Virus record (IMG/VR): IMGVR_UViG_646311924_000007
Span: 1-64,000 of that record
Source of the DNA: a virus
Lineage: Duplodnaviria > Heunggongvirae > Uroviricota > Caudoviricetes
Length of the DNA: 64,000 nt
Reading direction: 5' to 3' (one strand)
A program made the translations under genes and the position numbers. Under the pieces are notes generated by a model. That model made no database searches. It saw only the letters and a program-made list of their open reading frames with translations, and was not told the origin of the DNA. Below, piece by piece: positions 52,496 to 53,305 of this stretch (the first letter of the stretch is position 1; each line of letters starts with the position of its first letter).

Positions 52496-52900
52496 TTATT
52501 TGCTAAGAGCAGCGAATAATCGTTCGAAATCGATAGTATCTATAGCACGCGTAAGCGCCGGAAGTTCAGCCTCAAAGTACCCGTGTCGATCGTAAAAGAA
52601 GGGACCGAAGAGCGAGGCATGTTGGATTCTACTTCGCCCCAGCCCGGACACACAGTTAAGCCCATTACCGGCTAAAAGGCTAAAAAACTTCTCTGGATTA
52701 TCGTGGTAAAGCTGAGAATCAATGGTGGCGGTTAACTCTTCCATAGGGAAGCACACCCGCCCTGTCTCCCAGGGATATTTAGTCCGAAGCATAAACATTG
52801 CTTTCAGCAATTCACATTGAGCGCGGATCGCGTCCGGTTCATAGCCAGATATGGAGACATAAGCCACGTCCCTCATTCCTGCGTCATCTTTGAAAGTCAC
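52496..52900 (-). CDS. hypothetical ORF (134 aa, GTG start) in the same frame as, and directly after, the amber stop of the T5orf172 ORF
   Basis: Same reading frame as 52970-53305 with only a TAG at 52970-52972 separating them. Confidence 0.35.
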   Translation of the reverse strand: MTFKDDAGMRDVAYVSISGYEPDAIRAQCELLKAMFMLRTKYPWETGRVCFPMEELTATIDSQLYHDNPEKFFSLLAGNGLNCVSGLGRSRIQHASLFGPFFYDRHGYFEAELPALTRAIDTIDFERLFAALSK

Positions 52901-52969
52901 GATAGAAGTAACATCCAGTTCTTTTTCGAAAGAGCGAGCAGCATCTACTGGACGCTGAAGTAAATCATT

Positions 52970-53305
52970 CTACTTAATGCGCTCGAGAATCCCTCCCCAC
53001 ATATCATTTAGATATTCGATATGAGCCAAAACCTTATCAAGACACTCTCGTGTAAACCATTCAGTATGCCCGCCACCGGCGCTTTTCTCCCACGGCGCAT
53101 TCCAGGGGAAAAAGGTTGCGTGTAAAGCCCGCTCAAGATTAACCATTGCCAAACGCGTACCACGATAGACCCGTGAAAGCGCAAAATCGGGACTCACTTG
53201 TAGCCCTTTAAACCGTGCCAATGGACCACATGAAATGCCGATTTTAAAAGTATCTCCGTTCTCCGGCACCAGAACGTAGAGGTAGTGTTGTTTCTCTTCT
53301 TGCAT
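52970..53305 (-). CDS. T5orf172 / GIY-YIG-like domain protein (111 aa)
   Basis: YLYVLVPENGDTFKIGIS ... LERALH ... HTEWF pattern typical of T5orf172 domains. Confidence 0.6.
   Translation of the reverse strand: MQEEKQHYLYVLVPENGDTFKIGISCGPLARFKGLQVSPDFALSRVYRGTRLAMVNLERALHATFFPWNAPWEKSAGGGHTEWFTRECLDKVLAHIEYLNDMWGGILERIK

Follow-up and report, generated by a model that had tools for sequence, protein, structure and literature searches.

In the T4 Seg proteins and I-TevI, a flexible linker joins the GIY-YIG catalytic domain at the N-terminus to a DNA-binding domain at the C-terminus, and their genes are free-standing between essential genes. Here we describe a gene whose intact product is predicted to have the same order of parts, located at positions 52,496–53,305 of the IMG/VR virus record IMGVR_UViG_646311924_000007 (Caudoviricetes), of which positions 1 to 64,000, hereafter the window, were analysed. 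The gene belongs to the replicon cassette of a P1-like phage-plasmid and is divided in the window by an in-frame amber codon. Its product differs from the Seg proteins and I-TevI in being of the T5orf172 subfamily, with KIG for YIG, and in having a C-terminal domain that is predicted to be winged-helix-like and not of the zinc-finger plus helix-turn-helix kind.

T5orf172 homing-endonuclease genes have been described in vibriophage ICP1 and other phages (Barth, Dunham and Seed 2023, PMC10448857). The signatures reported for the ICP1-type genes comprise variable presence, stops, frameshifts and insertions, a position near essential genes and exchange boundaries, and a protein whose nuclease domain and putative DNA-binding domain occupy opposite ends (PMC10448857). 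The window gene and its family share the neighbourhood, the variable presence, the frequent lesions and, as predicted, the domain layout. In contrast to the ICP1 genes, the window gene resides in a phage-plasmid replicon cassette rather than in a lytic phage, occurs as one copy with no paralogous swarm, and encodes a C-terminal domain without sequence relatives outside its own family; homing at this locus would be a possibility suggested by analogy. A second ICP1 protein, Odn (gp88), is an origin-directed nuclease (PMC8263062). Odn fuses a T5orf172 domain to a replication-initiator-like fold, as the window protein appears to do, and both have a tie to iteron-containing origins, but the DNA-binding domain of Odn is N-terminal, the reverse of the order seen here, and is 42% identical to a RepA, while the window protein has no detectable identity of this kind.

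The closest entries are copies of the gene itself: phrog_2876, WP_001154684.1, RCS47 gp090 and JL22 gp57 are 98–99.9% identical at the nucleotide level and likewise lie between a p0111-type repA and parA, the window differing from them by its S112* allele. The gene and its truncated product are already known in RefSeq, and the gene is known in PHROGs, where phrog_2876 is a full-length family of 269 positions whose function is listed as unknown. JL22 gp57 has been called an 'unknown protein-encoding gene' (PMC9603915); in the literature the gene is mentioned as an unknown open reading frame, and we found no paper on its function. RCS47, Ro157c2YLVW, phi456 and most RefSeq plasmids carry a single annotated coding sequence of 810 bp, named 'GIY-YIG nuclease family protein' with 269 residues. 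The phi456 record (OR339795.1, 896–1705) labels the same gene 'terminase small subunit', which is almost certainly a mis-annotation. New in the present analysis are the origin of the split in a single-base nonsense change, the gene as a marker of the cassette edge, the recognition of P1 as the empty site, and a decay pattern of the selfish-nuclease kind. The locus is very probably a single two-domain nuclease-like gene of the p0111-type cassette that was broken by S112*, an ordinary loss-of-function allele and not a recoding signal.

One gene interrupted by an inherited amber codon

The gene starts at the ATG at 53305 and is read on the minus strand to the TAA at 52496–52498, with the following parts.

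52496..53305, minus strand: the disrupted gene in full (269 codons and the TAA stop), orthologous to RCS47 gp090, JL22 gp57 and RefSeq WP_001154684.1; family phrog_2876
52973..53305, minus strand: codons 1–111, a complete T5orf172 (GIY-YIG-like) domain, the only product expected from the amber allele
52970..52972, minus strand: amber codon 112, TCG (Ser) to TAG by a single C>A at nucleotide 335 of the gene (window base 52971, which reads G>T on the plus strand)
52499..52969, minus strand: codons 113–269, linker and then the predicted winged-helix-like C-terminal domain, untranslated in the amber allele
52465..52488, minus strand: intrinsic terminator that closes the gene and the cassette, with a 5-bp all-GC stem, a 5-nt loop and a TTTTTTGTGC tail

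The N-terminal part matched the Pfam family T5orf172 (PF10544) over residues 8–86 with E = 6e-7 and 30.3 bits, above the curated gathering cut-off of 20 bits. The 111-codon T5orf172 reading frame and the in-frame TAG that an earlier note, made from the letters alone, had reported were confirmed. The open frame that this note described beyond the TAG is also present; it comprises 157 codons rather than 134, the lower number having been counted from the first GTG at 52900. When the two parts were searched separately and as a fusion, as the note had proposed, the N-terminal part proved to be T5orf172, the C-terminal part gave nothing in Pfam, NCBIfam or PADLOC, and the full length was phrog_2876, with a match spanning positions 1–269 of 269 (E = 8.6e-194). 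The terminator at which the gene was said to end was located as the stem-loop GCCCC-TGAAC-GGGGC at 52488–52474 with a T-run after it, down to 52465.

We then compared codon 112 among full-length, gap-free copies of the gene (n = 51). All 45 non-amber copies had TCG, and TAG was found in the window and five others; every readable non-amber copy encoded an uninterrupted reading frame of 269 codons. The copy on the STEC799 plasmid differed from the window at one position in 810 bp, the C>A (coding strand) at codon 112. The reading frame of a 44%-identical orthologue was continuous across this point, and all three divergent orthologues introduced below have a sense codon there. The apparent gene pair is one 269-codon gene with an inherited, lineage-specific nonsense allele, S112*, and inactivation by a nonsense mutation, one of the three possibilities listed in the earlier note, is the one borne out by the TCG of all non-amber copies and the single-base difference from the nearest intact relative.

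The same 810-bp gene was present in 12 phage records, in 400 PLSDB plasmids and in 411 of 5,426 complete E. coli genomes, with 413 of 420 copies on plasmids; a scan of genome contigs added one E. coli-type copy only. An exact-match count with a 69-bp probe centred on codon 112 found the amber allele in 27 of 410 gene-carrying complete E. coli genomes and in 11 of 399 PLSDB plasmids. The allele was also carried by four IMG/VR contigs, and for the exact 111-aa product (RefSeq WP_001154680.1) at least 1,000 contigs are on record. Where strain names give a serotype, the 27 genomes are O111:H8, O157:H7 and O103:H2. With the identical allele in so many independently finished genomes and contigs, an assembly or sequencing error is ruled out and the TAG is a true inherited allele, passed on vertically and horizontally in a sublineage that is Shiga-toxin E. 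coli (STEC) where the strains are labelled. The seven copies that are not on plasmids lie on records labelled as chromosomes, for example that of E. coli ST2747 (hits H189–H191, about 2.17–2.22 Mb), which suggests integrated P1-like elements or plasmids merged during assembly.

The earlier note had also raised amber readthrough or suppression as the source of a two-domain protein. The TAG would then be a programmed, regulatory stop, with the 111-aa domain as the short product and a 269-aa fusion as the minor one. The stop is placed exactly at the inter-domain linker, so that both products would be folded units, and the frame remains open for 157 codons with no further decay. This lack of decay is accounted for by recency, the allele being one base from an intact relative. 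The amber 69-mer is missing from 383 of the 410 genomes, other lineages of the gene have stops at codons 68 and 228, and both observations, together with the TCG and sense codons described above, speak against a conserved recoding site. The only tRNAs in the window are tRNA-Asn(GTT), tRNA-Tyr(GTA) and tRNA-Thr(TGT), with no suppressor among them. Programmed readthrough is thus highly improbable, and this part of the earlier note is not supported.

It is also very unlikely that the split is functional, with the 111-aa domain, perhaps together with a re-initiated C-terminal fragment, selected in STEC hosts for a function that is either new or retained. The abundance of the allele (at least 1,000 contigs, several serotypes) and the retention of the complete T5orf172 domain would agree with such a product, and the NCBI annotation pipeline (PGAP) annotates both pieces. 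Heavy STEC sampling and hitch-hiking on a phage-plasmid that is itself successful can, however, explain the abundance. PGAP starts the second piece at codon 144, the first in-frame ATG after the TAG; an AGGA abuts this codon with no spacer, and a start at this codon would delete residues 129–138, the first strands of the C-terminal domain. Finally, the several truncation points in other lineages point to loss rather than to a specific new form.

For S112* as a loss-of-function allele, the predicted consequence is that only the nuclease-like domain is made, without the presumed DNA-targeting domain. Because that domain would be absent, the gene is presumably functionally dead or crippled, and the element would tolerate the loss because the gene is accessory.

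A further observation concerns the tRNA genes. The 87-nt tRNA-Tyr(GTA) predicted by ARAGORN at 62072–62158 on the plus strand lies between tRNA-Asn (61992–62066) and tRNA-Thr (62163–62238). Its anticodon is one base short of an amber suppressor, yet it is none. The tRNAs of P1 itself are Asn, Thr and Ile, and the tRNA-Tyr may be a lineage difference.

The p0111-type cassette and its exchange with P1

The surroundings of the gene were compared with P1 (NC_005856) by blastn, which delimited an exchanged cassette with the following features.

52430..54678, minus strand: exchanged replicon cassette (iterons, repA, iterons, T5orf172 gene, terminator), from blastn against P1
53598..54482, minus strand: repA of the p0111 / RepFIB-like (Rep3) type, 294 aa, start as annotated in relatives; 42% identical to P1 RepA
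53336..53599, no strand assigned: six p0111-type iterons downstream of repA (incA equivalent), four of which are oriented opposite to the remaining two
54563..54662, no strand assigned: five origin iterons upstream of repA
52382..52410, minus strand: Ppar, with -35 TGTACA and -10 TATTAT, the first P1-identical feature past the cassette

The flanks of the cassette are 94.5% identical to P1 on one side (56673–54679) and 99.3% identical from 52429 onward on the other, and the 2,249 bp between them have no P1 counterpart except 59 bp inside repA at 76% identity. The cassette replaces the incC iterons, repA, incA and spacer of P1, with the T5orf172 gene at its right-hand edge. The left breakpoint (window 54679, about 62807 in the P1 record) is inside oriR, between the part with the DnaA box and Dam sites and the iterons. 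The DnaA box and the Dam-methylation cluster are common to the window and P1 (94.5% identity) and the exchange starts at the iterons, so that the origin divides into two separable modules, one for host factors and one specific to the initiator. On the right, the breakpoint lies 19 bp upstream of the -35 element of Ppar.

The iterons differ in type from those of P1. The consensus TCGCGyATAGTCAAy matched 13 sites in the window, where chance alone would give 1.8, and no P1-type iteron was found in the window, so the earlier identification of the array as P1 incA has to be replaced by the p0111 type. The last downstream iteron ends 35 bp before the ATG of the T5orf172 gene. In P1, about 190 bp lie between the last incA iteron and the -35 element of Ppar, contrary to the statement in the note that the parA promoter follows incA directly. 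One p0111-type iteron copy, TCGCTTATAGTCAAC with two mismatches, lies inside the repA coding sequence at 53865–53879 (plus-strand match), and it is also found in the 84%-identical repA of a relative, L012 (Logan ERR2144811).

The IncY and p0111 replicon types are about equally frequent among P1-like elements (PMC9603915). The T5orf172 gene is a standard part of the p0111-type cassette in these phage-plasmids. A homing-endonuclease-like insertion at the replicon/partition junction, as the earlier note proposed, remains plausible in that the gene shows a discrete presence/absence relative to the IncY-type replicon. The insertion is not private to this element, as reference P1-like replicons carry the same genes at this junction, an observation of the kind that the note had named as refuting.

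A scan of the gene strand from repA to the ATG found no sigma-70-like promoter, and no terminator was seen between repA and the T5orf172 gene. With neither a promoter-like site of its own nor a terminator after repA, the gene may be co-transcribed with repA.

Divergent orthologues, the empty site and recurrent loss

An exhaustive HMMER search of 1.84 billion representative sequences recovered only four full-length lineages, while about 150 other matches covered the T5orf172 domain alone. The lineages are the E. coli family (a single 90% cluster with 1,241 members), P0004 (44% identical), P0009 from Salmonella (28% identical) and P0011 from a faecal metagenome (25% identical). In all four, the gene lies between a Rep3-type repA with downstream iterons and parA, and the backbones of the P1-like elements that carry orthologues are 67–74% identical to the window at the nucleotide level. 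Searching the phage and plasmid collections with P0009 by tblastn recovered only the N-terminal domain of the known family.

A Salmonella contig, L058 (Logan SRR6505940, 4813–6882), carries the 293-aa P0009 gene next to P1-type iterons and a RepA that is 83% identical to that of P1. The alignment of L058 with P1 stops right after the last incA iteron and restarts just upstream of Ppar; between these points, L058 has 983 bp with the T5orf172 gene, and the P1 sequence is 179 bp long and unrelated. No remnant of the gene was recovered by tblastn from the incA–Ppar spacer of P1 (E>4). L058 and P1 are a clean pair of filled and empty sites, and classical P1 is the empty-site form.

A second comparison showed the cassettes themselves to be exchanged as units. 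The backbones of L012 and L058 are 96–98.6% identical and contain different repA–iteron–T5orf172 cassettes, with the right breakpoint 63–84 bp past the nuclease gene. In two independent swaps, window/P1 and L012/L058, the right breakpoint thus falls within 45–85 bp of the nuclease gene. Between the window and L012, which have the same iteron consensus, RepA is 84% and ParA 89% identical, while the T5orf172 protein is 44% identical (60% in the N-terminal and 32% in the C-terminal domain). The called L012 product of 311 aa begins 41 codons upstream in the iteron array (6001–6123), and its N-terminus, …AYSQH…AYSQH…, consists of translated iterons; the true start is probably the Met aligned with the window ATG.

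Lesions other than S112* were found at several points of the gene. Nonsense changes are W68* in the relative L051 and Q228* in SJ46, JL22 and L033, and two 1-nt deletions are present in 673R5. In IMGVR_UViG_2645727563_000002, an IS200/IS605 insertion sequence (6294–8000) interrupts the gene at about codon 98; its translations, read without a domain search, give a TnpB-like protein of 389 aa and a Y1 TnpA-like protein of 141 aa. The protein collection holds further truncated products of 67, 91, 102, 116 and 223 aa. In the 673R5 record (ON470615.2), the T5orf172 gene and parB are each split by single-base indels, which suggests that the indels are sequencing errors in that record.

Among 33 distinct alleles, the T5orf172 gene had 32 synonymous, 37 non-synonymous and three nonsense changes, with a ratio of non-synonymous to synonymous polymorphism (pN/pS) of 0.36. 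At the same loci, pN/pS was 0.03 for repA, 0.01 for parA and 0.06 for parB, and these genes had no nonsense changes. Some purifying selection acts on the T5orf172 gene; compared with the genes around it, it is far more dispensable, and its loss has been recurrent.

The intact protein and its possible role

An AlphaFold2 model built with an alignment from the four lineages (mean predicted local distance difference test score, pLDDT, 73) showed two domains and a low-confidence linker at residues 115–127, which would place amber codon 112 at the domain boundary, immediately ahead of the linker. The T5orf172 domain has the alpha/beta fold of the GIY-YIG type. The family motifs (strand 1 Tyr, strand 2 KIG, helix 1 Arg and the EWF Glu) are all represented: Y8, Y10, K21, G23, R31 and E82-W83-F84 are invariant in the four lineages, at 25–44% identity, and any catalytic role is assigned to these residues by motif position. 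The C-terminal domain is predicted to be winged-helix-like and putatively DNA-binding on the basis of weak fold matches that include RctB, RepE54 and pPS10 RepA, all with scores below significance. Its 157 residues gave no Pfam match beyond noise (OB_POT1A, E=0.25), neither NCBIfam nor PADLOC had a match for the intact protein or its C-terminal part, and a profile search of PDB sequences returned one chance-level match (E=0.23). Sequence homology of this domain to RepA was rejected: hhalign gave a probability of 0.2% against five RepA sequences, and blastp gave E>0.3 (p0111-type, P1-type and a third type among the four RepA types).

By analogy with the systems described at the outset, we tentatively regard the intact protein as a possible free-standing, homing-endonuclease-like, site-specific DNA nuclease. 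Such a nuclease would ride at the boundary of the exchangeable repA–iteron cassette, might promote inheritance or conversion of the cassette when related phage-plasmids meet, and would pass through cycles of spread and decay like other such genes. Nearly all signatures of homing genes were found here, namely variable presence, stops, frameshifts and insertions, essential genes as neighbours and a position at an exchange boundary, with the DNA-binding part represented by the weak fold matches.

Several points weigh against this combined reading of a homing-type nuclease gene killed by its amber codon. The pN/pS of 0.36 and the conservation across backbones of 67–74% nucleotide identity indicate purifying selection, so that the intact protein does something that is selected for, and one copy per element at a single locus in four lineages would fit a long-resident cassette gene equally well. 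Judged from sequence alone, a low level of natural UAG readthrough could also occur.

In a stronger version, the nuclease would be a cassette-linked drive or weapon, whose Rep-like winged-helix domain would target the repA–parA junction or the iterons of rivals and destroy or convert them. The rivals have P1-type ParA and ParB (99.7% identical) and, by inference, the same parS, from which partition incompatibility would follow. This would explain why whole repA–iteron–nuclease cassettes are swapped between near-identical backbones, and the amber allele of STEC would be a disarmed version. We consider this version unlikely.

A mechanism closer to that of Odn, in which the winged-helix domain would bind the iterons of a rival or of the element itself and the T5orf172 domain would cut, as a weapon in plasmid competition, is distinctly unlikely in spite of the apparently shared fusion of domains. 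The DNA-binding domain of Odn and its RepA model have 42% identity, whereas the window domain has no RepA sequence similarity in the searches above; the structural scores are all below significance, and the winged helix is a very common fold. Moreover, the window and L012 share an iteron consensus yet their C-terminal domains are 32% identical, which disfavours recognition of own iterons.

The protein might instead be a DNA-binding accessory of the replicon that is not a nuclease, such as one that controls the expression of repA or par or the handcuffing of iterons. The gene is always co-inherited with repA and iterons, the possible co-transcription with repA would suit such a role, T5orf172 was originally named as a domain that binds DNA, and I-TevI, a GIY-YIG enzyme, doubles as a repressor. 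Against this, R31 and E82 of the GIY-YIG-type active-site motif stay invariant across deep divergence, repeated losses of the gene have left the plasmid in place, P1 and other IncY elements are functional in its absence, and its evolutionary rate is far above those of RepA and ParA. An accessory of this kind is, in our estimate, an unlikely explanation as well.

Of these readings, the homing-type nuclease at the cassette boundary remains the one we tentatively prefer for the intact protein. The locus should be annotated as one disrupted gene, where RefSeq now lists two proteins. P1-like phage-plasmids are a clinically relevant family, with resistance genes on many of its members, and are typed by the IncY/p0111 swap; this replicon swap always brings a fast-evolving, repeatedly inactivated T5orf172 gene at its edge. 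If the nuclease promotes cassette exchange or attacks rival replicons, it would provide a mechanism for replicon turnover and for escape from incompatibility, and the naturally occurring S112* allele would be at hand as a null control.
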